A DNA stretch of 64,000 nucleotides from Candidatus Tepidifontimicrobium thermophilum (lineage in GTDB: Bacteria > Sysuimicrobiota > Sysuimicrobiia > Sysuimicrobiales > Sysuimicrobiaceae): assembly GCA_031459915.1 (NCBI GenBank), contig JAVKHO010000008.1:1-64000 (forward strand), read 5' to 3'. Position numbers and translations under genes: made by a program. Positions within the stretch are counted from its first letter, which is position 1; each line of letters begins with the position of its first letter. The notes below the pieces were generated by a model that ran no database searches, had not been told where the DNA came from, and saw only the letters and a program-made list of their open reading frames with translations. Of this stretch, positions 2,931 to 46,156 are shown piece after piece.

Positions 2931-3319
2931 ACAGCCTGGTGCTGAGGACGGTGGCACGGGTGGTGGCACCCGTGGTGGTGCTGTACGGCGTGCGGTTGCT
3001 CCTGGTAGGTCACAACTCGCCGGGCGGAGGCTTCGTGGGCGGCCTCGTCACGGCCCTGGCGGTGGTGTTGGGCTGGCTGGCTTTCGGCCCCCCTCCGCGG
3101 GCACGGCGGTGGGAGCGGGGCGTGGCGCTGGGGGTGGGGATTTCCGCGGTCACGGGCCTGGCTGCGGTGCTCCTGGGCCGGCCGTTCTTGACCCACGCCG
3201 TGCTGTACGCGGGGCCCGTGAAGCTGCCCACGTCCCTGTTCTTCGACGTGGGGGTATTCCTGGTGGTGGTGTCCGCGACGCTCGCGGCCGTCCGGACCCT
3301 GTGGGAGGCGGGCTCGTGA
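2927..3319 (+). CDS. mrpB: Mrp antiporter subunit B
   Basis: GHNSPGGGFVGG and FFDVGVFLVV; overlaps the mrpA stop. Confidence 0.9.
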   Translation: MNSLVLRTVARVVAPVVVLYGVRLLLVGHNSPGGGFVGGLVTALAVVLGWLAFGPPPRARRWERGVALGVGISAVTGLAAVLLGRPFLTHAVLYAGPVKLPTSLFFDVGVFLVVVSATLAAVRTLWEAGS

Positions 3320-3621
3320 ACCTGGTGCTGGCGGCCCTGGTGGGTCTGCTGTTCGCCGCAGGCACCTGGCTGCTGCTGGGACAGCGCATCCTCCGGCAGG
3401 TGATCGGCCTCGGGTTGATCGCGCACGGGGCGAACCTGACGGTGCTCCTAGCAGGCGGCCTGGTAGGCCGGCACGCGCCGCTGCTGGGGAACCCCGAGCC
3501 CCGGGCAGACCCGCTGCCGCAGGCGCTGATCCTGACCGCCATCGTGATCGGCTTCGGGATCACCGCATTCCTGCTGGCCCTGGGCTACCGCATGCACGCC
3601 CTTGAGGAGGACGAGGGGTGA
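3316..3621 (+). CDS. mrpC: Mrp antiporter subunit C
   Basis: DPLPQALILTAIVIGFG; GTG start overlapping the mrpB stop. Confidence 0.9.
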   Translation: MNLVLAALVGLLFAAGTWLLLGQRILRQVIGLGLIAHGANLTVLLAGGLVGRHAPLLGNPEPRADPLPQALILTAIVIGFGITAFLLALGYRMHALEEDEG

Positions 3622-5072
3622 ACGCCGCCGCAGCCCCCGTGCTGATCCCGCTGCTGACGGGGCTTCTGTGCGTGGCCCTTCCCTCCCGCCGCCTCCGTTG
3701 GGGGGTGAGCGTGACGGGAGGTACGGCCTGCGTTGTCGCCAGCGTCTGGTTGGTGGCCCTGGCCCGGGCGCACACGGTCGTGATCCTGCGCTTCGGCAAC
3801 TGGCCCGCGCCGTTCGGGATCGTGTTCGCCGCGGACCTCCTGGGAGCGCTCATGAGCGCCATCGGGAGCTGGGTCGCGCTGTGCACCCTCCTGGCCCTGC
3901 TGGCGCAGCCGCACCCTCGCCTGGACGGCTTCTTCCACGGCGGCTGGCACCTGATGCTCGCGGGAATGAACGGGGCGTTTTTGACCGGTGATCTGTTCAA
4001 CCTGTACGTGTTCTTTGAGGTGCTGCTGGTGGCCTCGTACTTCCTGCTCACCCTGGGCAGCACCCGGCGCCAGGCGCGCGAGGCCTTCACCTACGTGGCT
4101 AGCAACCTGGTCGCGTCCACCCTGTTCCTTGTGGGAGTGGCGTTGCTGTACGCGGCCGTGGGCAGCGTCAACATGGCGGACCTGTCCGTGCGGATGCCGG
4201 ACGCGTCCCCGGGTCTGGTGCGCCCCGCGGTGTTCCTGCTGGCGGTGGCGTTCGGGGTGAAGGCGGCGATTTTCCCCCTGTACGCGTGGCTGCCCCACGC
4301 CTACGTGCTCCCTCCAGGGCCGGTGGCAGCGTACTTCGGGGGTATGCTCACAAAGGTCGGCGTGTACGCCCTGTACCGCCTGTTCACCACCCTGAACCCC
4401 CTGCGGGGTCCGGAGCCCACCCTGGTGACGGTGGCAGTGCTGACCATGGTGTTCGGGGTGCTGGGAGCCCTGGCGCAAGAGGAGGTGCGGAGGATCCTGT
4501 CCTTCCACATCATCAGCCAGATCGGGTACATGGTGTTCGGGCTGGCGCTGGGCACGCCGCAGGCGTGGGCCGCGGGGCTGTTTTACGTCCTGCACCATAT
4601 CGGCGTGAAGACGGCGCTGCTGCTCGTGAGCGCCGCGGTGGAGGCCAGCTACGGCACAGGCGCCCTGCGGGCGCTGTCGGGCTTGGCCCACGCCCACCCG
4701 TTTTTGGGCCTGTCCTTTGCGATCCCTGCCCTGTCCCTGGCCGGGATCCCGCCCTTGAGCGGCTTCTGGGCGAAGGTGTTCGTGGTGGAGGCGGGGCTCC
4801 GGGCCGGTGAGGCCTTCGCAGTGGGTGCGAGTCTTGCGGTGAGCCTGCTGACCCTGCTGTCCATGAGCAAGATCTTCACCGGTGCCTTCTGGGGGCCCTC
4901 TCCGGAACGGGAGGCGATCCCAGCGCTTCACTACCTCGCCATCGCGGGCGTGGGGGTGCTCACACTGGTGTGGGGGCTGGGAGGCGGGTGGCTGTGGGAT
5001 CTGACCGCCACGGCGGCGGAGCGCCTGGCAGACCCCGGCGTCTACGCCCAAACGGTGCTGGGGGGTCGCTGA
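3618..5072 (+). CDS. mrpD: Mrp antiporter subunit D
   Basis: GAFLTGDLFNLYVFFEVLL, WLPHAY, LTKVGVYA, LAGIPPLSGFWAK. Confidence 0.92.
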   Translation: MNAAAAPVLIPLLTGLLCVALPSRRLRWGVSVTGGTACVVASVWLVALARAHTVVILRFGNWPAPFGIVFAADLLGALMSAIGSWVALCTLLALLAQPHPRLDGFFHGGWHLMLAGMNGAFLTGDLFNLYVFFEVLLVASYFLLTLGSTRRQAREAFTYVASNLVASTLFLVGVALLYAAVGSVNMADLSVRMPDASPGLVRPAVFLLAVAFGVKAAIFPLYAWLPHAYVLPPGPVAAYFGGMLTKVGVYALYRLFTTLNPLRGPEPTLVTVAVLTMVFGVLGALAQEEVRRILSFHIISQIGYMVFGLALGTPQAWAAGLFYVLHHIGVKTALLLVSAAVEASYGTGALRALSGLAHAHPFLGLSFAIPALSLAGIPPLSGFWAKVFVVEAGLRAGEAFAVGASLAVSLLTLLSMSKIFTGAFWGPSPEREAIPALHYLAIAGVGVLTLVWGLGGGWLWDLTATAAERLADPGVYAQTVLGGR

Positions 5073-5073
5073 G

Positions 5074-5400
5074 GTGAGGCGGCTGGCGGCAGCGTTGCGC
5101 CTGGTGGCGGTCGGGGTGTGGGAGATCTCCCGGGCGAACCTGCGCCTGGCGACCCTGGTGCTCAATCCCAGGCGGGCCAACCGACCCCGCTTCATCCGGG
5201 TACCCATCCGCCTGCGCGGAGACGCCGCCATCACGGCCCTGGCGAACCTGATCACCCTGACGCCGGGCACCCTCACGGTGGACGTGGCGCCCGACCGCTC
5301 GAGTCTCCTGGTGCACGTCTTCGACCTGGAGGAGGAAGGCGCCGCGGTGGCAGAAATCCAGAACCGGTTGGAACGCGCGGTGGCGGAGGTGTTCGAGTGA
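5074..5400 (+). CDS. mrpE: Mrp antiporter subunit E
   Basis: LANLITLTPGTLTVDV motif. Confidence 0.88.
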   Translation: MRRLAAALRLVAVGVWEISRANLRLATLVLNPRRANRPRFIRVPIRLRGDAAITALANLITLTPGTLTVDVAPDRSSLLVHVFDLEEEGAAVAEIQNRLERAVAEVFE

Positions 5401-5654
5401 CAGCGGTAGCTCTGGCGCTGCTGGCCTGCGCGGCGGCCTTGTGCGCGGTCCGGCTGGCCACCGGACCCGGGTTCGTGGACCGCGTGGTGGCCGCAGACGC
5501 CCTGGCTATGGTGCTGCTCAACGTGGTCCTCACCGCGGGCGTGCTGTGGGACACCCGCGACTACCTGGACGTAGCTGTCGTGCTGGCTGCCCTGGCGTTC
5601 GTGGGCACGGTGGCGGCGGCGCGTTTCGTGTCCGGAGGAGGTCCCCTTGCGTGA
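5397..5654 (+). CDS. mrpF: Mrp antiporter subunit F
   Basis: GPGFVDRVVAAD...LAFVGTVAAARF; GTG start at 5397. Confidence 0.85.
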   Translation: MTAVALALLACAAALCAVRLATGPGFVDRVVAADALAMVLLNVVLTAGVLWDTRDYLDVAVVLAALAFVGTVAAARFVSGGGPLA

Positions 5655-5946
5655 GTGGAGTGCGGTGTTCCTGTTGGTGGGCGCCGCCTTCTCCCTGGTG
5701 GCGGGCGTGGGGATGGTCAGGTACCGGGACACCCTGAGCCGGCTGCACGTGGCGGGGAAGGTCACCACCTTCGGCGCCGCCGGCGCCCTGGTCGGATCCT
5801 TTTTGCACCACGGGGGAGGCTGGCAGGAGGTGGCGATCCTGGCTTTCCTGCTGCTCACCACCCCCGCGGGGTCCCACGCTCTGGCCCGGGCTCTCGCAAG
5901 ACGCTTTCACGACCAATCGGGATGGCCGTCCTCCGAGGACTCCTGA
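5647..5946 (+). CDS. mrpG: Mrp antiporter subunit G
   Basis: RLHVAGKVTTFG and LLTTPAGSHALARA. Confidence 0.85.
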   Translation: MREWSAVFLLVGAAFSLVAGVGMVRYRDTLSRLHVAGKVTTFGAAGALVGSFLHHGGGWQEVAILAFLLLTTPAGSHALARALARRFHDQSGWPSSEDS

Positions 5947-7148: not shown

Positions 7149-7679
7149 ATGTCCGTGGGGGCCGCAGAGGCGAAGTACTGTCCGCGGTGTGGCGGGCCGC
7201 TAGCTCTCCGGCGGTTCCGCGGAGAGCGGGTGACCCATCCTGCCTGCCAGCGCTGTGGGTTCGTCCTCTGGCAGAACCCCAAGCCTGTGGTGGCGGCCCT
7301 CGTCACCCGACAGGACAGGGCCCAAGCCCAGGTACTGTTGGGACGGCGCGGGGTGGAACCTGGCCGTGGTCTGTGGCACGTGCCGGGCGGGTTCGTGGAC
7401 CCTGACGAGACACCGGAAGAAGCCCTGGCGCGGGAGTGCGCGGAGGAACTGGGGGTGCAGGTGGAACCTGAGGAGTTTGTGGGTGGGTTTCCTGACCGGT
7501 ACGGGGAGGAGCCCATCCTGGTCCTGGCGTATCGGTGCCGCCTGGTTGGGGGAGAACCGGAGGGCTCCACGGAGCTGGATCAGCCCACGTGGTTCCCGGT
7601 GAACCGGCCGCCGCAGCTGGCCTTCCGCAGCTGCCAGCTGGCCCTCCAGGTCCTGTGGAGGAAACTGCAGGGCGGCTAG
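7149..7679 (+). CDS. Nudix hydrolase with N-terminal zinc ribbon
   Basis: CPRCG...CQRCG, then Nudix box PGGFVDPDETPEEALARECAEELG. Confidence 0.88.
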   Translation: MSVGAAEAKYCPRCGGPLALRRFRGERVTHPACQRCGFVLWQNPKPVVAALVTRQDRAQAQVLLGRRGVEPGRGLWHVPGGFVDPDETPEEALARECAEELGVQVEPEEFVGGFPDRYGEEPILVLAYRCRLVGGEPEGSTELDQPTWFPVNRPPQLAFRSCQLALQVLWRKLQGG

Positions 7680-8387
7680 CTAGCGGGCCGTCCGGCCGTG
7701 GCCCGAGGGCAGGGCAGCCGGTTCGCCGGCGTCCCCTTCCAGCAGCCCGAGCCGCTGGGCGGCCACCACCACCTCCACCCGGTTGTGGGCATCCAGCTTG
7801 GACAGCAGGGACTGCACGTAGTTCCGGGCGGTGTAGTAGCTGATGGACAGGCGCTCCGCGATGGCCCGCGTGGGGAGCCCCCGGGCCAGCAGGTGCAGCA
7901 CCTGCTTTTCCCGCGTCGTCAGGGCTACGTTGTCTGCGTAGGCCGCAGCCTTGGCCAGCTGCAGCTCGTCCATCTCGTCCCTCAGGGCCTCTACCACCCG
8001 GCGCAGGAACCGGATGGAGATGACCTCCAGCGAAGCATCCCGGAGCCGGTGGAGCACGAGGGGACCGTTGGGGGTGGCCACGGGTTGGTGCAGCAGCGAC
8101 CAGGCGCCCAGGGTGTGTTCGCGCCGCAGCACGCACACGGACCGTTCCCCCCTGGCGGCGGCGCGCAGGGGGTTGCAGTTCCGCGAACACGGCAGCGGGT
8201 CCCGCAGCCGCAGGCGGCGGAGGACCTGGAAGCACGGCCGGCCCAGGGCCTGCTGGGTGGCCAACCCCAGGATCTCTTCCATGCCCGAGCTCCAGCCCAC
8301 GATGCGTTGGCGCCCGTCCACCAGGAAAAACCCCTCCGGGTGGCGGTCCCGGATGAGAGAGTCTGCAGCCAGGCCCAGTTTCCTCAG
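7680..8387 (-). CDS. PAS domain plus LuxR-type HTH transcriptional regulator
   Basis: C-terminal LTTREKQVLHLLARGLPTRAIAERLSISYYTARNYVQSLLSKL; N-terminal PAS (EGFFLVDGRQRIVGWSSGMEEILG); start inferred at CTG 8387 (first canonical start is GTG 8321). Confidence 0.8.
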   Translation of the reverse strand: MRKLGLAADSLIRDRHPEGFFLVDGRQRIVGWSSGMEEILGLATQQALGRPCFQVLRRLRLRDPLPCSRNCNPLRAAARGERSVCVLRREHTLGAWSLLHQPVATPNGPLVLHRLRDASLEVISIRFLRRVVEALRDEMDELQLAKAAAYADNVALTTREKQVLHLLARGLPTRAIAERLSISYYTARNYVQSLLSKLDAHNRVEVVVAAQRLGLLEGDAGEPAALPSGHGRTAR

Positions 8388-8461
8388 GATAGGTCCCCCC
8401 CAAACGCGACCCTACCCCTTCCGCGGGGTGCGGGTCAACCGCCCCACCCTGCGGGGTCGGG

Positions 8462-9265
8462 TTACGGCAACGCCTCCAGCAGATCCCGCACGGACGGCAG
8501 CACTAGGTCCGGTCTCTGCGCCTCCGGCAAACTGGGGACGTCCTCCTGGGTGGCGGTGCCCGTGAGGACGAGGACGGAGAAGGCACCCACCGCGCGGCCT
8601 GCCGCCACGTCCAGGGCGGGGTCGTCGCCCACGAAGGCACAGCGGTCCGGCGCAAAACCCGCGAGGCTCAGGCACACCTGGCTCGCCAGCGCACTGGGCT
8701 TGCCCAGCAGCAGAGGCTCTGTGTTGGCGGCGTACGCCAGAGCCGAGGTCAGGGCTCCCGTGCCAGGGACCGGCCCGTCCGGGGTGGGGATAGTGCGAGC
8801 CATGCTCGTCGTGACGAGTATCGCCCCTGCGCGCAGGGCCCGCAGCGCCGCGGTGAGCTGGGCGTAAGTGAACTCCGGAGTCCGGGCCACCAGCACCGCC
8901 TGGGCCTCCGTGGCCTCGCGAAGCTGCAGGACCTGCAGCCCGCGCCGCCGGATCTCCTCCGCCATGGCCTCGCTGCCCACCACCAGCACCCGCCCGCCTG
9001 GGAAGCGCCGTGCCAGCCAGTCCGCCGCCACCTCCCCTGCGGTGAGCACCCGCAGGTCCGGCCACCGGAAGCCCAGGTCCGCCACCTTGCGGGCCCACGC
9101 TGCGGGGGACAGCAAGCTGTCGTTGGTGAAGAGGATGAATCGGTAGCCGCGATCCCGCAGGGCTGCGAGGGTCTGTAGGGCGCCCGGGACCGGCGTGTTA
9201 CCGATGGCCAGGCAGCCGTCGACGTCAAACACCAGCTCGCGGACCGAAGCCGGGAGGGTGGCCAT
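8462..9265 (-). CDS. HAD-IIA (NagD-like) phosphatase
   Basis: FDVDGCL, FTND, GKPS, FVGDDPALDV; 3 nt downstream of the UbiD gene. Confidence 0.88.
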   Translation of the reverse strand: MATLPASVRELVFDVDGCLAIGNTPVPGALQTLAALRDRGYRFILFTNDSLLSPAAWARKVADLGFRWPDLRVLTAGEVAADWLARRFPGGRVLVVGSEAMAEEIRRRGLQVLQLREATEAQAVLVARTPEFTYAQLTAALRALRAGAILVTTSMARTIPTPDGPVPGTGALTSALAYAANTEPLLLGKPSALASQVCLSLAGFAPDRCAFVGDDPALDVAAGRAVGAFSVLVLTGTATQEDVPSLPEAQRPDLVLPSVRDLLEALP

Positions 9266-9268
9266 GGC

Positions 9269-10705
9269 CTACAGGGTGACGAACCGCGACAGGCCCAGCT
9301 CCGACCAGCGGGACCGGACCTGCTGCTCCACGGCCGGGTCGAGCTGGATCTGGACGGGCTTGTCCTTCCACTCGTACGGGACGGTGGCGTTGATGATCAT
9401 CTTGGACGTGATCTCCCGTGCGTGGATGGGCAGCCCTGGATCCAGGGGCGTGGACCGGCCCCGCTTGATCAGCTCGCAGCGGTCAGGCGAAGAGCGGATG
9501 GCGATGGCGTACCAGACCTGCGTGAGGTCGTCCGCAGGGATGTCCCCGTCCACCAGGATCACGTACTTCACCCCGTAGTGGCCCGTCGTGGTGCCCAGCA
9601 CCGCCATCCCCACCTGCTCCGCGTGCCCGGGGTACTTCTGGTCCACGGACACCACCGCGATGAACCGGCCCCCGCTCTCGGGCAGGCAGTACACGGACCG
9701 GATGCCCGCGATGCGCATGGCCTCCAGGTCGGACCACAGGGTGGCGGTCCGGTTGAGGGACTGGATCATATGGGTGTCGGTGATGGGCCGGCCCACCGTG
9801 GAGACCGGGAAGAGGGGGCCCTTGCGGAAGTGGAGGGCCTTGACGTCGATCCACACCTTGGGAGAAGGGGTCCCGGAGTAGTACCCTGTGTACTCCCCGA
9901 AGGGCCCTTCCAGGCGGAGCTCATCCTCCGCGATGACCAGGTCTCCCTCCACCACGTACTCCGCGTCCGCGGGGATCGGGAGACCCGTGTACGTGCCGGG
10001 GGTAACCTCCATGGGCTCGCCCCGCAGCGCCCCCACCATGTCGTACTCGCATACGCCCCGGCCGAAGAGGGTGCTGGCGGTGAGGAACAGGAGGGGGTCG
10101 CTCCCGAACACCAGGGCCACGGGCATCCGCCTCATCCCGCGCTTACGGGCGTTCTGGATGTGCAGGTCCGCGTCCTTCCCCTTGATGGGCTGCAGGCCCA
10201 GGGTCCGGCCGTCGAACACCTGGCTGCGGTAGGTCCCCACGTTCACCCAGCCGGTTTCGGGATCCTGGGTCACCACCGCCACGGCGGTGCCGATGAACCG
10301 GCCCCCATCCATGGGGTACAGCTTGGGCACTGGGACGAACCGCAACACGTCCGCCTCAGGGCCCGTTACCGAGTTCTCGTACACCGGCGCGCGCTCCGGC
10401 GGGACGGACACCGGGGGCACCGGGTGCTTGGTGCGGTCCACCCAGAAGCGCGCCAGCTGGCAGATGCTGTTGCGGTCAGGCGCGCCCAAGGCGATGGCCA
10501 TGCGCTTCACCGTGGTGAACAGGCTGGCCAACACCGGCCGTCCCTCGTATCCCTTGACCCGTTCGAACAGGAGCAGGGGACCGCCCCGCTCCTCGCTCAG
10601 TTTGGCCACGTGGCCCAGCTCCAGGTCCCAGTCCACTTCTGCCTGGATCCGGGCTAGGTCACCGACCTCCTCCACCTGCCGCACGAACCACCGCAGGTCC
10701 GGCAT
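9269..10705 (-). CDS. ppcB: UbiD-family (de)carboxylase, phenylphosphate carboxylase beta subunit-like
   Basis: EVDWDLELGHVAKLSEE, GTYRSQ, EGPFGEYTGYY, RTATLWSDLE, ELIKRGRSTPLDP, PYEWK resemble PpcB as recalled; divergent from Pps-like genes. Confidence 0.8.
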   Translation of the reverse strand: MPDLRWFVRQVEEVGDLARIQAEVDWDLELGHVAKLSEERGGPLLLFERVKGYEGRPVLASLFTTVKRMAIALGAPDRNSICQLARFWVDRTKHPVPPVSVPPERAPVYENSVTGPEADVLRFVPVPKLYPMDGGRFIGTAVAVVTQDPETGWVNVGTYRSQVFDGRTLGLQPIKGKDADLHIQNARKRGMRRMPVALVFGSDPLLFLTASTLFGRGVCEYDMVGALRGEPMEVTPGTYTGLPIPADAEYVVEGDLVIAEDELRLEGPFGEYTGYYSGTPSPKVWIDVKALHFRKGPLFPVSTVGRPITDTHMIQSLNRTATLWSDLEAMRIAGIRSVYCLPESGGRFIAVVSVDQKYPGHAEQVGMAVLGTTTGHYGVKYVILVDGDIPADDLTQVWYAIAIRSSPDRCELIKRGRSTPLDPGLPIHAREITSKMIINATVPYEWKDKPVQIQLDPAVEQQVRSRWSELGLSRFVTL

Positions 10706-10908
10706 CCCTCTTCCTCCTTCCCCTCGACCGGTTCACCCCCAGTAAGGCCGGGCCTTCGCCGGGCCGGCAAGGCGCGGGCGTACTGGTGCAATCGTACCGG
10801 GCGGTGCGTTCGAACCGGTGCGCTTGCCTCTTGCCGGCCGGGAGGGGAACGGGAACCGTAAGCATTAGACTCAGGGTCTTGTCAAGCCTTTTGGGGGGGT
10901 GAACAGCC

Positions 10909-12753
10909 ATGGCAGCCCAGACGGTGGTGCACCGTTTCCCCAGCCCCTTCGAGGTCCCCACGCCGCCCGGTGCGGAGGGCTGGCAGCGCATGTACCCGTA
11001 CTACCTCCTGTTCTCCGAGGAGAACCGGGCCTGGGAAGACGCCATGCTGTGGTACCAGGACGGGATCCACCACCCGGAGGTGTTGTTCCCCTTCGACACC
11101 ATCTCCCACGAGGCCTGGCGGATCGCGTTGGGTCAGAACAACAGCCGGATCTTCGCCATCCCGCCCGCGTACGGGATCGAGCAGCGCATCCTCAACGGCT
11201 ACCTGTACATCACCCCCGTCCCGGTCACGGACCCGAAGTGGGTAGAGGAGCGCGTGGCGGTGTTCATGAAACGGGCGGGCCACTACTACCAGAGCTGGAA
11301 CCTGCTGTTCGACCGGTGGAAGGAGAAGATGACCCGGCTCATTGAGGAACTGGAGGCGCTCCCCGTCCCTCGCCTCGCCCGGCTGGACGACGAGGCAGTG
11401 GTCACGGAGGCCCGGGGCATGTCCACCGGGTGGAAGCTCCTGGAGGCGTACGGGCGGCTGATCGACAACTTCTTCGTAGCGTGGCAGCACCACTTCGAGA
11501 TGTTGAACCTGGGCTACGCCGCGTACCTGAACCTGTACCAGTTCTGCAAGCAGGCCTTCCCCGGCATCGGGGACCAGACCATCGCGCAGATGGTGGCGGG
11601 CTCGGAGTTGCTGTTCTTCCGGCCCGACGACGAGCTGAAGAAGCTGGCACGTCTGGCGCTGGACCTCGGCATCGCGGACCGCATCCGCCAACCGAAGAAG
11701 CCCGAGGACGTCGTAGCGGAGTTGCGCCAGGACCCCCGGGCGCGGCCGTGGGTGCAGGCCCTGGACGAGGCCTGGCGGCCGTGGTTTTACTTCTCCAACG
11801 GCGCGGGCTTCTACCACCACCACCGGAGCTGGGTGGACGACCTGACGGTGCCGTGGGCGGCTATGAAGGGGTACATGGAGCGCATGGAGCGCGGCGAGAA
11901 CATCGAGCGACCCAAGGAGGAGATCCTGGAGCGCCGGGAGCGGTTGGCCCGGGAGTACCGGGAGCTGCTGAGCAGTGACCAGGACCGGGCCACCTTCGAC
12001 CAGAACCTGGCCCTGGCCCGGACCGTGGCCACGTACATCGAGGACCACAACTTCTACGTGGAGCACTGGCACCACACCATCTTCTGGAACAAGATGCGGG
12101 AGGTCGGGGACCGCTTCGTGGAGGGCGGGTTCTTGGACGACCGGGAGGACGTGTTCTACCTGAACCGACACGAGGTGGCGCAGGCCCTGGCGGACCTAGT
12201 GGCCACGTGGGCCACGGGCGGCAGGAGCCGCGGTGCGGTGTACTGGAAGCGGGAGGTGGCGGACCGGAAGCGCATCCTGGGCGTTCTACGTAACTGGTCG
12301 CCGCTGCCGGCCCTGGGTCCGGTGCCCGCGGAGATCACGGAGCCGTTCACCGTGATGCTGTGGGGGGTCACCACGGAACGCGTGCGGGAGTGGCTGGGAG
12401 CGGCTGGAGCCCGCGCGGAGGACGAGATCCGGGGCTACGCGGGATCGCCCGGGGTTGCAGAGGGCGTCGCGCGGGTGATCCTGTCCGCCTCGCAGCTCTC
12501 GGAGGTCCAGCCGGGCGAGATCCTGGTGTGCCCCATCACCGCGCCCAGCTGGGGTCCGGTGTTCAACCGGATCGCGGCGGCGGTGTCGGACATCGGCGGC
12601 ATCATGTCCCACGCGGCCATCGTGTCCCGGGAGTACGGCCTGCCGGCGGTGGTGGGGACCGGGGACGCCACCAAGCGCATCCGCACGGGCGACCGCATCC
12701 GGGTGGACGGGAACACGGGCGTGGTGAAGATCCTGAAGCGCGCGGCGAGCTGA
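10909..12753 (+). CDS. Phenylphosphate synthase subunit A-like (phospho-His PEP-utiliser mobile domain)
   Basis: N-terminal PGAEGWQRMYPYY and C-terminal GGIMSHAAIVSREYGLPAVVGTG (His568); 614 aa with no ATP-grasp or pyruvate-binding barrel. Confidence 0.82.
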   Translation: MAAQTVVHRFPSPFEVPTPPGAEGWQRMYPYYLLFSEENRAWEDAMLWYQDGIHHPEVLFPFDTISHEAWRIALGQNNSRIFAIPPAYGIEQRILNGYLYITPVPVTDPKWVEERVAVFMKRAGHYYQSWNLLFDRWKEKMTRLIEELEALPVPRLARLDDEAVVTEARGMSTGWKLLEAYGRLIDNFFVAWQHHFEMLNLGYAAYLNLYQFCKQAFPGIGDQTIAQMVAGSELLFFRPDDELKKLARLALDLGIADRIRQPKKPEDVVAELRQDPRARPWVQALDEAWRPWFYFSNGAGFYHHHRSWVDDLTVPWAAMKGYMERMERGENIERPKEEILERRERLAREYRELLSSDQDRATFDQNLALARTVATYIEDHNFYVEHWHHTIFWNKMREVGDRFVEGGFLDDREDVFYLNRHEVAQALADLVATWATGGRSRGAVYWKREVADRKRILGVLRNWSPLPALGPVPAEITEPFTVMLWGVTTERVREWLGAAGARAEDEIRGYAGSPGVAEGVARVILSASQLSEVQPGEILVCPITAPSWGPVFNRIAAAVSDIGGIMSHAAIVSREYGLPAVVGTGDATKRIRTGDRIRVDGNTGVVKILKRAAS

Positions 12754-12757
12754 GGCC

Positions 12758-13798
12758 ATGGACTACGTCCTGCCCCTGGAGCACTGCGGGCGCTCGGTCC
12801 TGGACCGGGTGGGCGGGAAGGCGGTGGGGCTGTGGGAGCTGCTGCGCCGCGGACTCCCAGTACCTGCGGGCTTTGCTGTCACCACCCACGCGTACCGGGA
12901 GTTCGTCCGCTCCGAGCGGTTGGACCGGGAGATCCGCTGGTGGGTGGAGCGGGCACGGGAGTCGGTGGACGCGCAGCTGGAGGCCTCGCGGAGGATCGGG
13001 CAGCTGTTTACGGAGCGCCGTCCCCCCGCTTTCCTGACGGAGGAAGTGGCACGGGCGTACGGACAGCTGGGGGAGCCTCCCGTGGCGGTCCGCTCCTCCG
13101 CGGTGGGGGAGGACGCCCGGACGGCGTCGTTTGCCGGGGAGCACGAGAGCTACCTGTGGGTGTGCGGCTACGAGGAGGTGGCCGCCTCCGTGCTGCGGTG
13201 CTGGGCCAGCCTGTTCAGCCCGCAGGCCCTGAGCTACTTCGCGCACCTGGGGGCCGACCCCGCGGAGGCCGCCATGGGCGTCGTGGTCCAGCACATGGTG
13301 GACGCGCAGGTAGCGGGCGTGATGATCACCCTGGACCCCGTCACGGGGGATCCGTCCCAGGTCACGGTGGAGGCCAGCTACGGCCTGGGCCTCGCGGTGG
13401 TGGGGGGCGAAGTCACCCCGGACCGGTTCGCGGTGGACAAGGTCACCCTGGAGGCGCGTTCTAGCCGCGTGGGCCACAAGACCGTGGCGTACCGCTACGA
13501 CCCTAGCCAGGGCCGCGTGGCGGCCTTTCCCGTACCGGAGGAAATGGCCGGCCAGCCGTGCCTGCGGCTGGAGCAGGTGCAGCAGCTGGCGCAGATGGGC
13601 AGGCAGCTGGAGCGGGAGCTCGGGAGGGCCCAGGACGTGGAGTGGGCTCTGGACGGCGACGGCCGGTTGTACCTGGTCCAGACCCGGCCCGAAACGGTCT
13701 GGAGCAACCGACCCCGAGCGCCTCTGTCGAACCCGGAGGAACCCATGCTGAGCCGCATCCTGCGCAGCATGCGGATCCCCATGCGGATCGCGGATTGA
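12758..13798 (+). CDS. Phenylphosphate synthase subunit B-like (PPDK/PEPS ATP-binding domain)
   Basis: VGGKA, VAVRSSAVGED..ASFAG, QDVEWALD, LVQTRPETVW; stand-alone nucleotide-binding domain. Confidence 0.82.
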   Translation: MDYVLPLEHCGRSVLDRVGGKAVGLWELLRRGLPVPAGFAVTTHAYREFVRSERLDREIRWWVERARESVDAQLEASRRIGQLFTERRPPAFLTEEVARAYGQLGEPPVAVRSSAVGEDARTASFAGEHESYLWVCGYEEVAASVLRCWASLFSPQALSYFAHLGADPAEAAMGVVVQHMVDAQVAGVMITLDPVTGDPSQVTVEASYGLGLAVVGGEVTPDRFAVDKVTLEARSSRVGHKTVAYRYDPSQGRVAAFPVPEEMAGQPCLRLEQVQQLAQMGRQLERELGRAQDVEWALDGDGRLYLVQTRPETVWSNRPRAPLSNPEEPMLSRILRSMRIPMRIAD

Positions 13799-13805
13799 TC
13801 CGTCT

Positions 13806-14447
13806 GTGGCCGGCGGCTGGCGGGTCTGGCTGTTCGACCTGGACAAGACCCTGGTCAACGTGGAGGACGGCGTGGACTACTGCGCGGCCCTCCACGCTTT
13901 GCGGGAGCGGTTCCCCCAGGCCCGCAGGAGAGAGGGACTACCACCTGTGGAGTTCACGCGGTGCGCGGTGGAGGTGCTGTCCGTCCTGGACGGCCTGTTC
14001 GGAGACCCCCCGCGGTGGCAGCTGGCCTCCGACACCGTGGAAGCGTACGAGCTGGCGGGTGTTGCGCGCTCCAGGCCCATGCCGGGCCTGGAGTCGTTGC
14101 GGAGCCTACGGGGCACGCGGCCGTGGGCGGTAGTGACGCTGCTGGGGCCCCGAGCGGCGCAGGAGGTGCTGCACCGCCACGGGCTGCAGCCGGACTGCCT
14201 GGTAGCCAGGCAGCCAGACGTCCGAATGAAGCCTGCTCCGGACCCGGTACTCCGTGCCCTCCAGCTGCTGGGAGCCCGACCCGAGGAGGCCGTGCTGGTG
14301 GGGGACAGTAGCTGGGACGAGCGCTCCGCGCGCGCGGCAGGCGTGGCGTTTGTAGGTCTCACGTGGGGCCGTGAACAGCCCTTCGGCCCCGGTGCCCGGG
14401 TGGCCCACGACCTGGAGGAGGTTACGCGTCTGCTCCTTCACTGGTGA
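13806..14447 (+). CDS. HAD-IA family hydrolase
   Basis: FDLDKTL, MKPAPDP, LVGDSSWD. Confidence 0.82.
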   Translation: MAGGWRVWLFDLDKTLVNVEDGVDYCAALHALRERFPQARRREGLPPVEFTRCAVEVLSVLDGLFGDPPRWQLASDTVEAYELAGVARSRPMPGLESLRSLRGTRPWAVVTLLGPRAAQEVLHRHGLQPDCLVARQPDVRMKPAPDPVLRALQLLGARPEEAVLVGDSSWDERSARAAGVAFVGLTWGREQPFGPGARVAHDLEEVTRLLLHW

Positions 14448-15463
14448 CACGCTCCCCCCGCCAGGGAAGCAGCCTTCTCCGCCGAACCTTCACCGACGTG
14501 ACACGCTTTGCGGTAGGAACGCCCGAACACCGGGGCTCGGGCGCAGACCCCCGAGCCCCTGCAGCCTTCGTCCTGCGGATCCCCGGGTTGCACTTGGCCC
14601 GCACCCTCGGATGCGGCCAGGCTTTCCGGTGGAGCTGGCGCGGCGGGGTCGCAGAAGGTGTCGTCGGGCGCTCGGTGTGGCGGCTGCGGCCCACAGCCGG
14701 CGGTGTCCGTGGGGTGGCCGCTGGGGAGGCGGTGCGTCCGGACCGGTTGCGGGGCTACCTGCTGGGCTGGGGGCCGATAGGTCCGCTGGAGGCCGCTCTG
14801 GCCACGGATCCGGTGCTGGCACGGGCGCTGCGGCAGACCCGCGGGATCTCCATCCTGGCGCAGGACGCGTGGGAGGTGCTGGCCACGTTCCTCGTCTCTC
14901 AGAACAACAACATCCCGAAGATCGTCCGCAGCGTGCAGCACCTCTGCCGGGCCCTGGGTGAGCCCATCGGACAGCCGCCCCTGGCGTGGACGTTCCCGTC
15001 CCCGGCCGCGGTAGCGGAAGCACCGGACCGGATGCTAAGGGAGGCGCTGCTGGGCTACCGGGCAGCGTACCTGCGGGAGGTGGCGCGGCGCGTGGCCTGG
15101 GGCGACCTGGACCTGGATCGCCTGCGGACCATTCCCACGGAGGAGGCGCGAAGGGCGCTGTTGGACCTGCCCGGGGTTGGGGAGAAGGTGGCGGACTGTG
15201 TGTTGCTCTTCGGCCTGGGGCACCGGGCGACCTTCCCTGTGGACGTGTGGGTGAGGCGTGCGGTGGAGGAGCTATACTTCGGCGGGCGATCCAGGTCCGT
15301 ACGGGACATCCGGGCGTGGGCCCTAGACCGCTTCGGGCAGCTGGCAGGCCTTGCGCAGCAGCACCTGTACCACTACGCCAGGACGTGCGGGATTGCTGGG
15401 TCGCGTCAGGACGACGGCGGCAGGGGCGGCACGGCAGGGCGCAGGACCTCCGCCTGCGGGTGA
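14444..15463 (+). CDS. 8-oxoguanine DNA glycosylase (OGG1-like, HhH-GPD); start uncertain
   Basis: TLGCGQAFRW, FLVSQNNNIPKI, LPGVGEKVADCVLLF, FPVDVWV, AQQHLY. Confidence 0.85.
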   Translation: MTRSPRQGSSLLRRTFTDVTRFAVGTPEHRGSGADPRAPAAFVLRIPGLHLARTLGCGQAFRWSWRGGVAEGVVGRSVWRLRPTAGGVRGVAAGEAVRPDRLRGYLLGWGPIGPLEAALATDPVLARALRQTRGISILAQDAWEVLATFLVSQNNNIPKIVRSVQHLCRALGEPIGQPPLAWTFPSPAAVAEAPDRMLREALLGYRAAYLREVARRVAWGDLDLDRLRTIPTEEARRALLDLPGVGEKVADCVLLFGLGHRATFPVDVWVRRAVEELYFGGRSRSVRDIRAWALDRFGQLAGLAQQHLYHYARTCGIAGSRQDDGGRGGTAGRRTSACG

Positions 15464-17397
15464 CGTGCCTGCCGCCAGTTCCGGACTGCCAGCAGGGCCG
15501 CGCAGACCAGCCCGGCGACCTCCAGGGGCCACGAGAAAGCTGCCACCTGGCCGGTCTCGGGGGTGAGCACCGCGACCGCGCTGGCCGCCAACAACACGCG
15601 TTCCGGCAAGGAAAGGCGGGTAAACCAGTGGCCGACCAAGGAGGCCGCCAGCAACCACGTCCCCAGCACCGCCGTACCGGTGGCCAGCAGGATGGTGGCC
15701 ATGCTTCCACGGCCGATGAGGGCCGGCTCGAGGGCGAACAGGAAGGGCACCAGGTAGGCCACGGCTGCCAGACGCATGCTGGCCCAGCCGGCGCGCCAGA
15801 AGTCGCACCCTCCGATGGCCGCGGCGGTGAAAGTGGCCAGGCACACCGGCGGGGTGATCATGGACAGCATCCCAAAGTAGAAGACAAACAGGTGCGCCGC
15901 GAGCGCCGGTACCCCCAGCTGGACCAACGCGGGAGCCACGAGGGTCGCCATGAGCACGTAGACCGCGACTGTGGGCATGCCCATGCCCAGCAGCATCGCC
16001 ACAACGGCGGTCAGCAGCAGGAGCAGCGGGAGGTCCCCTCCAGCCAGCTGGGTGAGCAGCAGGGCCAAGCGGAAGCCCAGTCCGGTGTACTGCAGGACCC
16101 CGATGACCAGGCCCGCCACGCCGGTCACCGCCACCAGACCCAGCAGGGCGCGCCCGGTCTGCTCCAGGACACCCAGCACGCTCCAGCCCCGCACCCGCAG
16201 GACCAGCGCCACCAGCGCTGCCAGGGCCGCGGCCACCACACCCACGTGGTCCGCCTGCCACCGGAGGCCGTAGAGCCCGAGAATCACGGAGCCCAGGGCG
16301 ACCGCGAACACGCTGCCGCGCGGGAGGACCCGCCGCAGCTGCGGGAGCTGGTCCGCGGGCAGGCCCCGCAGGCCGGCCCTGGCGGCCTCGAGGTCCACCT
16401 GGAAGAACAGGCAGACGTAGTAGAGGATCGCCGGGATCAGGGCCGCCGCCGCCACCTCCGCGTACCGGATGCCCAGGAACTCCGCCATGAGGAACGCGGC
16501 AGCGCCCATCACCGGCGGCATGATCTGCCCTCCCGTGGAGGCGGTGGCCTCCACCGCGGCGGCCACGTGGGCCGGGTAGCCTGCCCGTTTCATCATGGGG
16601 ATGGTGATGGGGCCGTCCACGGCCACGTTGGCCACCGCGCTTCCCGAGATGTTGCCGAACAGAGACGACGCCACCACGGCCATCTTTGCCGGTCCGCCCC
16701 GAAAGCGGCCCACCAGGGCCAGGGCCAGGTCGCCCAGGAAGTCCGCACCGCCCGTGGCGAACAAAACCTGTCCCATGAGGACGAACCCGAGCACCACCGT
16801 GGAGGCGACCGCGAGGGGCGTGCCCAGGATCCCGTTGAGGTCCAGGTACAGGTAGGTAAACAGGCGCTCCCACCGCGCGGGCGTGCCAGCCAGCGGCCCG
16901 GGCAGCAGGTCGGCAAAGCGGCCGTACAGGAGGAACACCACCGCCACCCACAGGACCGCGGCTCCCGCGGTGCGCCGGACGGCCTCCAGCAGGAGCACCA
17001 CCGCGGCGAGGCCGAGCAGCCACTTGTCGGGCGTGAGGATGGCCAAGCGGTCGGCCACAGAGGGGTAGTAGACAGCCACGTAGCCGCCCACCGCGACACC
17101 CGCACAGGCCAGGACCCAGTCGTGCCAAGGGATCCGGGCCCTCTCCCTTCCGCGGGCGGGGATCGACAGGAACACAGCCGGCAGCGCCAGGGCCAGCAGC
17201 ACGCCCAGGTACTGTTCGCGGAACACCGGCACTCCCACCCGGGAGGGCACCTGGAGGATGAACAGCATCCCGGCTGCGGGGATGGCTACCAGTATCACCC
17301 GCAGCACAGCTCCGGCAGCTCCACCCGGGCGCGCAGCCGGCAGGTTCTCTGGGTCACGGGCCGTGGTGGGCTCGCTGGGCCGCACCGGGCGCGGCAT
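15406..17397 (-). CDS. TRAP transporter fused (4TM/12TM) permease
   Basis: SGSAVANV, EATASTGGQIMPPVMGAAAF, GMGMPT, ITPPVCLA. Confidence 0.92.
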   Translation of the reverse strand: MPRPVRPSEPTTARDPENLPAARPGGAAGAVLRVILVAIPAAGMLFILQVPSRVGVPVFREQYLGVLLALALPAVFLSIPARGRERARIPWHDWVLACAGVAVGGYVAVYYPSVADRLAILTPDKWLLGLAAVVLLLEAVRRTAGAAVLWVAVVFLLYGRFADLLPGPLAGTPARWERLFTYLYLDLNGILGTPLAVASTVVLGFVLMGQVLFATGGADFLGDLALALVGRFRGGPAKMAVVASSLFGNISGSAVANVAVDGPITIPMMKRAGYPAHVAAAVEATASTGGQIMPPVMGAAAFLMAEFLGIRYAEVAAAALIPAILYYVCLFFQVDLEAARAGLRGLPADQLPQLRRVLPRGSVFAVALGSVILGLYGLRWQADHVGVVAAALAALVALVLRVRGWSVLGVLEQTGRALLGLVAVTGVAGLVIGVLQYTGLGFRLALLLTQLAGGDLPLLLLLTAVVAMLLGMGMPTVAVYVLMATLVAPALVQLGVPALAAHLFVFYFGMLSMITPPVCLATFTAAAIGGCDFWRAGWASMRLAAVAYLVPFLFALEPALIGRGSMATILLATGTAVLGTWLLAASLVGHWFTRLSLPERVLLAASAVAVLTPETGQVAAFSWPLEVAGLVCAALLAVRNWRQARHPQAEVLRPAVPPLPPSS

Positions 17398-18432
17398 CTA
17401 CCGGGCAGCCTCCTGGAGCAGACGTCCCTGGGCCTGATCCATGGCCTGCGTCCACGCGCCCTTCTCCCGGTACAGCCGGATGGCTCCGGGGTGGTAGGGG
17501 ACGGTCACGCCGGGATCCGCGTAGCGCCGCGTGGCCCACTCCTCGAAGGCGGAGTGCAGGGGCCACAGCCTCCGGTTGTGCTCCCACAGGGTCCGGGTGA
17601 CGCGGTACACCACGTCCTCAGGGAGGTCCTTGTGGGTCAGTAGGTAGATGTCGTAGGCTTCCACCCAGACGTCCTCCACCACCCCTGCGGAACGGCCTGC
17701 CTTCAGGCGCACCGCGTAGTAGCCGGGCACCGCCTCCCGCAGCCGCCGCTGGCCCTGTTCGTCCCCGCAGATGGACAGAGCGCGCAACCCGATGGTGGCG
17801 TCCGCCTCCTGCACGTCCGCGGCGCCGAGGGCGTAGGCAGCGGAGTCTGCGCGGCCGGTCACGAGCGCCCGCATTCCCTCTCCCACGGTGGACACCGGCA
17901 CCACCTGGACGTCGTTCCAGGAGAGCCCGCAGGAGGCCAGGTTGCCGTAGGTGTTGAACCAGACGGCCAAGTGGGCCGAGTACACGCCCGTCACCCGTCG
18001 GCCCCGCAGGTCCGCCACGGTGCGGAACGGGCTGTCCCGCCGGGCCCACTGCACCGCGTAGAGCGGGCCCCCGCGCACCACCAGGCGGATGTGGGGCGCG
18101 GGCTGGAACGGGTTCCTCCCGCCCACCTTCAGCCGGTCGGGACCCCGGTACGCCATCGCCACGTCCACCGCGTTGACCACGCCGAGCTGCAGCTCGCCCG
18201 CGTTGAGCAGCGGCAGGAAGGTGCTACTGCCGCTGTACGGCTGGACCACGGCCCGCAGGCCTGCGTAGTCCGTGAGGACACGGGCGACGCCGCTCCCAAG
18301 CGCGTAGAAGAGGGTGCCGGGTGGGTTGGTGCCGATGGTGAGGGTGCCCGGGGCCGGGCCCGCGGAGACACCCGCGCAGGCCACCAGCAACGCCAGAAAC
18401 ACCGCCATGCCGGGAACGCCGATCCGGACCAT
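17398..18432 (-). CDS. TAXI family TRAP solute-binding protein
   Basis: Signal peptide, IGTNPPGTLFY, C-terminal VPYHPGAIRLYRE; ATG at 18432. Confidence 0.88.
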   Translation of the reverse strand: MVRIGVPGMAVFLALLVACAGVSAGPAPGTLTIGTNPPGTLFYALGSGVARVLTDYAGLRAVVQPYSGSSTFLPLLNAGELQLGVVNAVDVAMAYRGPDRLKVGGRNPFQPAPHIRLVVRGGPLYAVQWARRDSPFRTVADLRGRRVTGVYSAHLAVWFNTYGNLASCGLSWNDVQVVPVSTVGEGMRALVTGRADSAAYALGAADVQEADATIGLRALSICGDEQGQRRLREAVPGYYAVRLKAGRSAGVVEDVWVEAYDIYLLTHKDLPEDVVYRVTRTLWEHNRRLWPLHSAFEEWATRRYADPGVTVPYHPGAIRLYREKGAWTQAMDQAQGRLLQEAAR

Positions 18433-18500
18433 GCGAGCCCCCCCTTTCGCACGCTTTGCCTCCCTAACAGGTTGCCAGAGAGGGGTGGAGGAATCAAAGG

Positions 18501-19475
18501 TCAGGCGAGCGCCAGCAGGTCCCGGGCGTTCCGCCACAGGACCGCCTCCAGCCCCTCCGGATTCAGACCGGCCTCCTGCAAAGCCCGCACGCCGTCCTCG
18601 AGGTGGCCGATCACGTGCGGGAAGTCGGAGCCAAAGACCACCTTCTCAGGGCCCACGGTGTCCAGGAGGCACCGCAGAGCAGGCGGGTAGGTGTTCACGG
18701 TGTCGTAGTACACGCGCCGCAGAACCTCGCTGGGCGGGCGGGCGGCAGCGCACTCCGCGTACGCCCGGTAGCCGGTGTCCAAACGACCCAGCAGGTAGGG
18801 CACGGCGCCGCCCGCGTGGGGCGCCACCAGCTTCACGCGCGGGTATCGGTCGAAGAAGCCCGAGTACGCCATCCGCGCCAGCGCCACGGTGGTCTCCGCG
18901 GGGAAGCCGACCAGGGGAACGAGGCTGAAGTCCTGCAGGTGGGGCGAAGTGAGGCCCCCCATGGGGTGGAGGAGGACCACCAGGCCCAGCTCGTCCGCCC
19001 GCCTCCAGAAGGGCTGGAAGGCGGGGTCGTCCAGCGGCTTTTCGCCCACCGTGGTCCCCACCACCACGCCGTCCAGGCCCAGGAAGCGGACGGCGTAGTC
19101 CAGTTCCTCCACCTCCGCCCCCGTCCCCAGGGGTACGCTGGCCAAGCACCGGAACCGGTCCGGGTGGCGCCCCTTGACTTCGGCGTACACCCGGTTGACC
19201 AGACGCGCAGCCTGCACCGCCACGGGTTCAGGGAACGCGTACACGTTGGGGCTCGTGAGCGACAGCACCTGGACGGAGGCGCCCAGGTGGTCCATGATCC
19301 GCAAGCGCTCTTCGAGATCCACCATGGGCCGCGTGAGGGTGGCTAGACGGGCGCCGTGCTGCTCCAGGTAGCGACGGCCCTGGGCGTCCGTCCGGATCCG
19401 CACGCCGTGCGCTTGGTGCTCCAGGAGGGCCAGGTACGCCTCGGGGTAGAAGTGGGTGTGGAGGTCTACGAGCAT
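18501..19475 (-). CDS. Amidohydrolase-2 family protein (ACMSD/aromatic acid decarboxylase-like)
   Basis: DLHTH, LLHP, PHAGGAVPY, YYDT, FGSDFPH. Confidence 0.85.
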   Translation of the reverse strand: MLVDLHTHFYPEAYLALLEHQAHGVRIRTDAQGRRYLEQHGARLATLTRPMVDLEERLRIMDHLGASVQVLSLTSPNVYAFPEPVAVQAARLVNRVYAEVKGRHPDRFRCLASVPLGTGAEVEELDYAVRFLGLDGVVVGTTVGEKPLDDPAFQPFWRRADELGLVVLLHPMGGLTSPHLQDFSLVPLVGFPAETTVALARMAYSGFFDRYPRVKLVAPHAGGAVPYLLGRLDTGYRAYAECAAARPPSEVLRRVYYDTVNTYPPALRCLLDTVGPEKVVFGSDFPHVIGHLEDGVRALQEAGLNPEGLEAVLWRNARDLLALA

Positions 19476-42718: not shown

Positions 42719-43039
42719 GTGGCGGAGCGCACCGTCCGGCGGGAGGAGTTGCCCGTGTACGTGATCAGCGTGGCCGCGGAGCTGGCGGGGGTGCACCCGC
42801 GGACCTTGCGGATCTACGAAGCGAAGGGCCTGATCCGTCCGGCCCGACGCAAGCACATCCGGCTGTTCAGTGAGCGGGATGTGCAGCGGGTGAGGTTGAT
42901 CCAGTACCTGACGCAGGAGGTGGGGCTGAACCTGGCCGGGGTCCGGCTGTTCCTGGAGATCCAGGAACGGCACGAGGAGGTGGCCCGGTGGTTGCTGGAG
43001 CTGTGCGACACCCAAACCGAAAGGAGGGGAAGGCGATGA
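42719..43039 (+). CDS. hspR: MerR-family heat shock repressor HspR
   Basis: VYVISVAAELAGVHPRTLRIYE.KGLI.P.R, GLNLAGV. Confidence 0.85.
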   Translation: MAERTVRREELPVYVISVAAELAGVHPRTLRIYEAKGLIRPARRKHIRLFSERDVQRVRLIQYLTQEVGLNLAGVRLFLEIQERHEEVARWLLELCDTQTERRGRR

Positions 43040-43488: not shown

Positions 43489-43505
43489 GCTGAGGTCGTC
43501 GACAG

Positions 43506-43536
43506 CTGGGGGCGGCCCCCGAGGGGCCGCCCCCAG
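43506..43536 (+). other. 14-bp perfect GC hairpin abutting the dnaK RBS
   Basis: CTGGGGGCGGCCCC-CGA-GGGGCCGCCCCCAG with no U tract; the stem end overlaps the start of AGGAGGAGG. Confidence 0.7.
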
Positions 43537-43550
43537 GAGGAGGGAGAGAC

Positions 43551-45434: not shown

Positions 45435-45517
45435 GCGTGGGGCGACGAGACGCGTGACGGGTACCCAAGGCCCCGTGGACGGGTTCTGGGGCCCGGCAGG
45501 CGCGGAGGGTTCGGAGG

Positions 45518-46135: not shown

Positions 46136-46156
46136 GGGGCCGCGGACTTGAACGCC

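Follow-up and report, generated by a model that had tools for sequence, protein, structure and literature searches.

The 64,000-nucleotide stretch of DNA described here, referred to as the window, is from Candidatus Tepidifontimicrobium thermophilum (assembly GCA_031459915.1, contig JAVKHO010000008.1, positions 1 to 64,000 of the forward strand). It contains a 7.4 kb block of seven intact genes that, on comparison with known sequences, may serve to convert phenol to 4-hydroxybenzoate without oxygen, with a HAD-IIA phosphatase replacing PpcD, the delta subunit of Thauera-type systems. This is the reading that we favor, albeit tentatively. An earlier account based on the letters of the window alone (the sequence-only reading) had placed six genes here, one of them for a phospho-histidine protein with His 568 in the motif SHAAIVSRE. 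All six open reading frames and His 568 were found at those places, with family scores far above chance, and a seventh gene, encoding a Nudix hydrolase at 7149–7679, had been overlooked. The host genome (G000) is 2.6 Mb in size, 96% complete, and 71% in guanine plus cytosine (GC) content, and C2 denotes another of its contigs. Published work is cited by accession.

The carboxylase gene lies at 9269–10705 on the minus strand and encodes a UbiD-type carboxylase/decarboxylase dependent on prenylated flavin mononucleotide (prFMN). Its best family model is that for PpcB, TIGR02724, and the protein shows 48% identity to Azoarcus PpcB and 29% to PpcA. Anchors for the comparisons were plasmid-borne clusters typed by their gene content, namely the Azoarcus pps-ppc cluster, one cluster of the cre type, and two of the hpe type. 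In the UbiD tree (36 rows, LG+G4) the window protein and its actinomycete relatives form their own branch with a support of 100/100. This branch falls within the PpcB group (99/96), which includes Azoarcus PpcB and the PpcBs of strict anaerobes and lies apart from both PpcA and the UbiD proteins encoded on C2. The description of the window enzyme as a single, PpcB-like UbiD is thus borne out. The positions of Arg 160, Glu 266, Glu 271, and Leu 421 coincide with those of catalytic residues in VdcC and Fdc1, as mapped via Arg 168 and Leu 425 of the former and Glu 277 and Glu 282 of the latter (PMC8379154). The catalytic Glu-Arg-Glu set and the active site leucine are intact, and a ubiX gene (270 bits) is present in the genome. 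Directly preceding Leu 421 is an Arg-Gly-Arg-Ser-Thr stretch that is typical of PpcBs.

PpsC, a second UbiD, a gamma subunit, ubiX, and a sigma54 activator had all been said to be missing from the window. Neither ubiX nor a second UbiD is present there, and the block has no match to PpcG, PpcD, or PpsC; the sole, weak match to a XylR-like activator in the window is a ClpB-sized gene at 47093–49699. The best score of any G000 UbiD with the PpcA model, TIGR02723, is 212 versus a cut-off of 564.6, and none groups with PpcA in the tree. For PpcD the corresponding values in G000 are 27 and 282 bits. No blast match to Azoarcus PpcG was found in G000, and TIGR02725 matched in none of five genomes, although no positive control scored with that model. 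The CBS gamma subunit of the kinase, PpsC, was found at none of the 14 loci of the window branch described below, and its best match in G000 is 29% identical over 142 residues and unlinked. In the congener G002 (83% complete) and in G231, among five genomes searched, there is one UbiD match each genome-wide. G002 has lost the four UbiD genes of C2 from an otherwise collinear cluster and has kept hcr, bcr, and the block. The presence of a single UbiD in G002 and G231 argues against a second UbiD subunit.

The kinase is encoded on the plus strand by two genes. That at 10909–12753 specifies a 614-residue protein with the substrate and swivel domains of the PpsA/CreH/HpeH family (NF006153, 877 bits; PRK08296 family), and that at 12758–13798 specifies the 346-residue ATP-grasp subunit of the PpsB/CreI/HpeI family (PF01326, PPDK_N, 315 bits), which is 37–43% identical to the anchors. 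The larger protein carries the sequence S-x-x-G-G-x-M-S-H568, in agreement with the dikinase motif T/S-x-x-G-G-x-M-x-H (PMC12167813), and His 568 corresponds to His 569 of the Azoarcus protein. Over 600 residues it is 46–51% identical to the Pps, Cre, Hpe, and Thermomicrobium anchors, where the family norm is ∼45%. By its motif, its identity, and its separate ATP-grasp subunit, the enzyme belongs to the two-component aryl dikinases typified by PpsAB, CreHI, and HpeHI. Assignment of the kinase proteins to RPH or PEP synthase, and of the carboxylase to the housekeeping UbiD or MqnL enzymes, was rejected.

Directly behind ubiD, at 8462–9265 on the minus strand, is the gene for a HAD-IIA protein of the NagD/HpeD type, a predicted aryl-phosphate phosphatase. 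It scores 118 bits with TIGR01460, which is above the cut-off, and its DxD, TN, K, and GDD motifs are intact. A census of 80 loci, fetched by their UbiD genes and surveyed with tblastn, comprised 14 loci of the window branch (from 13 genomes), 59 next in relatedness, and seven more distant; related loci in this set are not independent, and several are short. A HAD-IIA gene directly follows ubiD at 13 of the 14 branch loci, and the fourteenth is cut by a contig end inside the start of the HAD gene. HAD-IIA occurs at none of the 59 comparison loci and at none of the seven distant ones. Conversely, UPF0261, CBS, ubiX, PpcD, PpcG, and coenzyme A (CoA) ligase genes are absent from all 14 branch loci, whereas the comparison loci contain UPF0261 (38), CBS (21), HD phosphohydrolase (9), HAD-IA (6), PpcD (2), PpcG (1), and ubiX (40). 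The HAD-IIA gene stays beside ubiD even where the kinase genes are divergent, as in the window, or on another contig, as in G231. In the HAD tree the window protein is sister to the HpeD-like enzymes with moderate support (85/89). A deeper PpcB-like branch, represented by G029 and G231, likewise has the ubiD-HAD-IIA pair, and there the G231 protein groups with housekeeping NagD (97/94). Since one phosphatase falls with NagD and the other with the HpeD-like enzymes, the trees suggest two separate recruitments of HAD-IIA. In G231 the ubiD-HAD-IIA pair, ubiX, a ligase gene, and the bcr genes form one cluster. On contig C26 of G029 (L031) the order is IclR-ubiD-HAD-IIA-ppsA, a 930-residue molybdopterin oxidoreductase, ppsB, and Nudix. 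Unrelated phosphohydrolases also turn up repeatedly in single-ppcB loci (L054–L112), namely the CreD-like HD and the distant HAD-IA proteins counted above.

Eight genomes of the genus (G000–G007) and 94 of the phylum, all from one order, were sampled. The nearest named protein (97%) is annotated as from an Armatimonadota bacterium, and a phylum of this make-up presumably corresponds to CSP1-3/Sysuimicrobiota (PMC11604079). The block is carried by G000, G002, and G006. In G004, G005, and G007 the same site is empty, with the flanks joined (window positions 7129 and about 14566–14582); G003 retains the left flank only and G001 neither. The Nudix gene belongs to the block since it, too, is missing from the three empty sites. 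Intergenic gaps of only 3 bases (ubiD to HAD-IIA), 4 bases (the kinase genes), and 7 bases (ppsB to HAD-IA) indicate two divergent operons. No direct repeats of at least 8 bp were found at the block ends, and the GC content of the block is 69.7% versus 70.6–71.2%.

The regulator gene occupies 7680–8387 on the minus strand. The earlier designation as PAS-LuxR holds for the LuxR helix-turn-helix; the PAS domain is not recognized from the first common start at 8321 and passes the Pfam threshold only from a probable CTG start at 8387, which lies 22 codons earlier (PF00989, 26.0 bits, cut-off 22.6). G002 likewise has CTG at the equivalent position, where G006 has GTG. Between the divergent operons there is a conserved box (10785–10828, plus strand) with two 14-bp units at 10785 and 10803, and it is kept in G000, G002, and G006. 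The same box precedes ubiD in the actinomycetes G095 and G097; in G095 it stands before a ubiD-HAD-ppsAB operon and again before an operon for a PaaK-like ligase and a PAS-LuxR protein beside hcrCAB. With a matrix built from three actinomycete sites, which were picked with the core seen in the window and hence not fully blind, the window site at 10805 (best 24-mer, 10805–10828) scores 21.3 bits and ranks top among the 5.19 million positions of G000; the next, at 17.0, lies inside a gene. A genome-wide pattern search matched G006, G095, and G097 and gave no match in G029 or G094; the reversed control gave none. Close PAS-LuxR orthologues occur in G097 (67%) and in G095 (53%, behind the PaaK-like ligase gene), and none in G094, G096, or G098. 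The G094 and G098 loci have a GntR regulator, and that of G096 is cut. Among the genomes tested the box is present only where there is a PAS-LuxR orthologue, and by this co-occurrence it is a candidate operator. A metagenome scan with the box pattern recovered the block at three of 11 loci (UbiD 92–98% identical), the other eight being unrelated; all three are close relatives, and so no independent lineage was added. That the regulator is not of the sigma54 type is supported, yet regulators also vary at the comparison loci, which are mostly ppsA-ppsB-one ppcB under LysR, PucR/GAF, IclR, or XylR proteins.

The block is not self-contained. A genome search for ubiX and the hcr/bcr genes had been recommended earlier, and although the window lacks them, C2 encodes ubiX, two CoA transferases, four UbiD proteins, hcrCAB-like genes, a CoA ligase, a paralogous PAS-LuxR protein, bcrCBAD-like genes, and a BadH-like dehydrogenase. 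The HcrA-like gene of G000, G002, and G006 scores 814–829 bits. A Cys-rich insert in the HcrB-like protein presumably corresponds to the additional iron-sulfur site known from HcrB. In G002 no ubiX was found, but its contig begins just beyond the place of that gene. In the region 36282–61968 of C2 (L028, L029), ubiX, the four UbiD genes, each different, and the hcrCAB-like and class I bcr-like sets come before genes for an amidohydrolase-2 and the BadH-like dehydrogenase; the former might encode a ring-opening hydrolase of non-crotonase type. Next to ubiX/ubiD there is repeatedly a gene for a small pyridoxamine-oxidase-like protein, at 43324–43836 of C2, at 18 loci, and in the Azoarcus cluster; its product is a possible prFMN helper. 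The window UbiD was found in four of the 94 genomes of the phylum, each of which also belongs to the 25 that have a BcrC-like gene, and in two of 401 sampled genomes of the phylum of G095 (G095 itself counted). Three of the five actinomycete carriers have a BcrC-like gene and three a strong HcrA-like match. The suggestion that the host is an unexpected one is supported. G000 also encodes a haem-copper oxidase, an NarG/Nxr-like enzyme, and an NirK-like protein.

On the reading that we favor, the ATP-grasp subunit would move the β-phosphate of ATP to His 568, from which it would pass to phenol, the presumed substrate, yielding phenylphosphate, AMP, and Pi; such a β-phosphate transfer has been demonstrated for PpsAB and HpeHI. 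A UbiD homo-oligomer, provided with prFMN through the C2 ubiX product, would carboxylate the ring in the para position, and the HAD-IIA protein, in a predicted contact with the carboxylase, would strip the phosphate there and deliver phenolate to UbiD. The resulting 4-hydroxybenzoate would be activated with CoA, after which the HcrCAB-like enzyme would remove the hydroxyl group and the class I benzoyl-CoA reductase of C2 would carry out the reduction. PAS-LuxR would bind the box in the divergent promoter. The carboxylation is probably a catabolic entry route and not CO2 fixation for growth.

Comparison with characterized systems places the block near, and not within, several of them. Like the single-PpcB clusters of Geobacter metallireducens (Gmet_2100–2102) and Desulfatiglans anilini (phe), it has ppsA, ppsB, and one ppcB and is devoid of ppcA, ppcG, ppcD, and ppsC; the G. 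metallireducens cluster, a three-gene operon (PMC1924859), contains a ppcB homologue only, that of D. anilini contains ppsA, ppsB, and ppcB, and the gamma subunit of the kinase is merely stimulatory (PMC6114531). The same report calls the mechanism of a lone PpcB different and unknown. Those two clusters hold ubiX and a CoA ligase gene (and related loci mostly UPF0261), unlike the window branch, for which unlinked copies of all three exist in G000; the branch differs further in its HAD-IIA gene, its kinase clade, and a host with a haem-copper oxidase. With the Thauera-type cluster on the plasmid of Azoarcus sp. KH32C (L124) the block shares PpsA (46% identity), PpsB (37%), PpcB (48%), and Nudix (34%), the phospho-histidine position, and a HAD phosphatase behind ppcB, although HAD-IIA is related to PpcD by superfamily only. 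It differs from the PpsABC/PpcABGD systems of Thauera and Azoarcus by the absence of the alpha, gamma, delta, and CBS subunits and of a XylR-type activator, and in its divergent operons with a PAS-LuxR regulator. The Hpe/Acv systems (HpeHI-CBA-D of Rhodococcus rhodochrous GD02 and AcvAB-CDE-F of Sphingobium SYK-6) likewise combine a two-subunit kinase, a carboxylase, and a NagD-like phosphatase, and the block is 47%, 41%, and 33% identical to the hpe-type anchors. Their carboxylase, however, requires biotin and ATP and modifies an acetyl side chain, where the block has UbiD; no biotin-dependent HpeCBA is present in the block, and no match to HpeA was found in G000. The CreHI 4-cresol pathway of Corynebacterium glutamicum (anchor, a Rhodococcus oxybenzonivorans plasmid, L122; 48% and 40% identity) also has a two-subunit kinase (PMC12167813, for both CreHI and HpeHI), and its P450 oxidation and HD-domain phosphatase are not in the block. 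The idea of a stripped-down Thauera system therefore stands insofar as an aryl kinase and a PpcB-like carboxylase occur without alpha, gamma, delta, or CBS subunits. That such a lack, or that of XylR, is in itself unusual is not supported, given Geobacter, Desulfatiglans, CreHI, HpeHI, and the varied regulators of the comparison loci. The one-subunit layout is already known, and the block is not of the Thauera four-subunit family but close to the single-PpcB type; what is new is the phosphatase, the kinase clade, the regulator, and the hosts. No description of HAD phosphatase, UbiD, phenylphosphate, and PAS-LuxR in combination was found in the literature searched, which did not extend to subscription papers and supplements; the kinase trees in the supplement of PMC9618137, like the PMC11604079 gene tables, might be relevant to this novelty.

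Various observations weigh against the conversion of phenol by a delta-like HAD-IIA. In the kinase tree (34 rows) the window enzyme and its relatives form their own clade (100/100) outside the core Pps clade (100/100), and only three of 15 Pps-diagnostic columns are matched, as are three of 10 Hpe-diagnostic columns, such that this test points to no substrate. A forced union of the window clade with the core Pps clade, Anaerolineae excluded, gave a p-AU of 0.04, whereas a union with Pps plus the Anaerolineae kinases (60/35) was not rejected. The ATP subunit leans toward HpeI (94/89). Because the kinase lies outside the core Pps clade, its substrate may differ from phenol. The UbiD score with TIGR02724, 455.7 bits, is just below the cut-off of 468.95; for the corresponding C2 genes the Hcr and Bcr models are the best-scoring ones, yet also below their cut-offs; and HcrA of G000 is only 42–45% identical to the HcrA proteins beside other ppcB clusters. 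The Oah/BamA ring hydrolase was not found in G000, G002, G006, or G029, and G000 has no orthologue of the box-linked ligase of G095 (best, 40%). The box occurs once in G000 by the genome-wide search and is not found before its hcr/bcr genes. Aerobic aromatic routes are also present in G000. Two of the five actinomycete carriers are without a BcrC-like match and two without a strong HcrA, and G097 is without a full-length kinase; these genomes are incomplete. Finally, the nearest assayed relative of HAD-IIA, HpeD, acts after carboxylation, prefers the carboxylated product, and does not speed the carboxylase (PMC9618137), and with aniline, in vitro, D. anilini needed a pair of UbiD proteins (PMC7500099). 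The D. anilini proteins were insoluble.

Rather than phenol, the substrate might be catechol, cresol, guaiacol, or a similar compound, which would be turned into a substituted hydroxybenzoate for the divergent Hcr- and Bcr-like enzymes. That another phenolic compound could be involved was raised in the sequence-only reading, and the position of the kinase allows it: the protein is equally far from all anchors, it matches few diagnostic columns of either type, and in this family substrate classes form separate clades (PMC9618137). UbiD, moreover, is on its own long branch, and the downstream enzymes fall below their cut-offs with no Oah. On the other hand, the PpcB-group enzymes that have been studied act in the metabolism of phenol or aniline, the union with Pps and Anaerolineae kinases was not rejected, and HpeHI turns over phenol, members of the family being promiscuous (PMC12167813). 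A substituted substrate is unlikely, if the foremost of the alternatives. Somewhat more doubtful is a reversed order, in which UbiD would carboxylate phenylphosphate itself and a free HAD-IIA would then hydrolyze 4-carboxyphenyl phosphate, pulling the carboxylation forward. The sister relationship of HAD-IIA to the HpeD-like enzymes, the common GDD motif, and the preference of HpeD would fit this order, as would the leaning of the ATP subunit and the recurrence of unrelated HD (9/59) and HAD-IA (6/59) phosphohydrolases in other single-ppcB loci. The Arg-Gly-Arg-Ser-Thr stretch could hold the phosphate, but it is found as well in the PpcB of Azoarcus, which has PpcD, and the pattern missed several PpcB rows. 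An aryl phosphate is, furthermore, a weaker nucleophile than phenolate. In Thauera the delta subunit forms phenolate for the core enzyme before carboxylation (PMC7500099), and AcvF of SYK-6, argued to act at that same stage, would be delta-like (bioRxiv 2022.04.28.489975). A delta-like role for HAD-IIA is favored over an HpeD-like order.

It would be surprising if the window UbiD recruited one of the C2 UbiD proteins as an alpha-like partner. Recruitment from separate clusters occurs in D. anilini, where two UbiDs are needed; in both G000 and G006 four UbiD genes adjoin ubiX and hcr, and many are present in G094, G096, and G098. None of the C2 proteins groups with PpcA, however, and G002 deleted its copies and kept the block, leaving it, like G231, with the one UbiD noted above. 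Least probable is that the block serves to trap or detoxify phenolics, or acts as a decarboxylase, uncoupled from the anaerobic benzoyl-CoA route. Trapping by phosphorylation has been proposed for HpeHI (PMC12167813), two phosphatase genes adjoin those of the kinase, G000 has its aerobic routes, and the box is absent from the hcr/bcr cluster of G000. Nevertheless, an ATP-to-AMP kinase is linked to PpcB in most related loci, the window UbiD co-occurs with bcr, and in G095 and G231 there is the shared box and clustering with ligase, hcr, or bcr genes.

The remaining genes of the block are at its two ends. The Zn-ribbon Nudix hydrolase (7149–7679, plus strand, identified with Pfam) is the sole match in G000 to the Nudix protein of the Azoarcus pps-ppc cluster. 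Nudix enzymes produce dimethylallyl monophosphate for prFMN in Escherichia coli (PMC12359138), and by analogy this one may do likewise. The HAD-IA protein (13806–14447, plus strand, by family match) was found in three of 31 genomes, within the genus only together with the block, and may be a second phosphatase or relieve an excess of aryl phosphate. Contigs from RNA libraries cover parts of the block and flanks alike, and neither level nor strand is readable from them. With five possible source runs excluded, runs containing at least half of the words trace to four studies of hot springs, together with one sludge, one sediment, and one organism record.

Several further observations concern relatives of the block. 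G008, G010, and G011 (L032–L036) each encode five PpsA-family paralogues and no PpcB-like UbiD; in G010 several of these are without an adjacent ATP-grasp gene, and one is beside a carboxyltransferase and HAD-IIA in an hpe-like arrangement. In such genomes a single ATP subunit may be shared among different substrate subunits. A 384-residue protein with no Pfam match adjoins the kinase genes at L048, L050, and L052 and at the Anaerolineae loci L094, L096, and L099. P0012, from a close relative, is a 525-residue protein in which the first ∼275 residues of UbiD are fused to PAS-LuxR; the end of UbiD and HAD-IIA may have been deleted, or the contig misassembled. In the G006 bin the ubiD-ppsA junction exists in two versions that differ slightly, on contigs C42 and C57 (L038, L039), reflecting duplication or a mixture of strains. 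Beside the block, the window at 14444–19475 encodes an OGG glycosylase, a fused TRAP permease, a TAXI binding protein, and an amidohydrolase, and this unit is considered to lie outside the module because the empty sites have the TRAP permease as well and little of the unit is left in G002. An Mrp-type Na+/H+ antiporter operon is found at 735–5946, and the genes at 43036–49699, named from the starts of their sequences, are presumably those for Hsp20, DnaK, GrpE, DnaJ, and a ClpB-like protein.

Taken as a whole, the block could represent a third architecture for aryl-phosphate carboxylation, an idea that we hold still more tentatively than the conversion of phenol itself. It would join one PpcB-type UbiD to a phosphatase of NagD/HpeD type, itself acquired on two or more occasions, with an uncharacterized kinase clade and a PAS-LuxR protein having its own operator, as a mosaic of the Hpe scaffold and the Pps/Ppc carboxylase. 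If so, four catalytic proteins, from a hot-spring organism, would suffice, and the block, if active, would be a compact biological Kolbe-Schmitt system. A lone PpcB paired with a NagD-like phosphatase bears on how such enzymes work without alpha, gamma, and delta subunits and on the disagreement between the two papers that place AcvF before and HpeD after carboxylation. The words aromatic, phenol, and benzoate are absent from the main text of two surveys of the phylum (for one, PMC11962464, by term counts) to which the host presumably belongs, and the block suggests anaerobic aromatic catabolism there. Were the proposal correct, the anaerobic activation of phenolics would extend to this candidate phylum and to the Actinomycetota.

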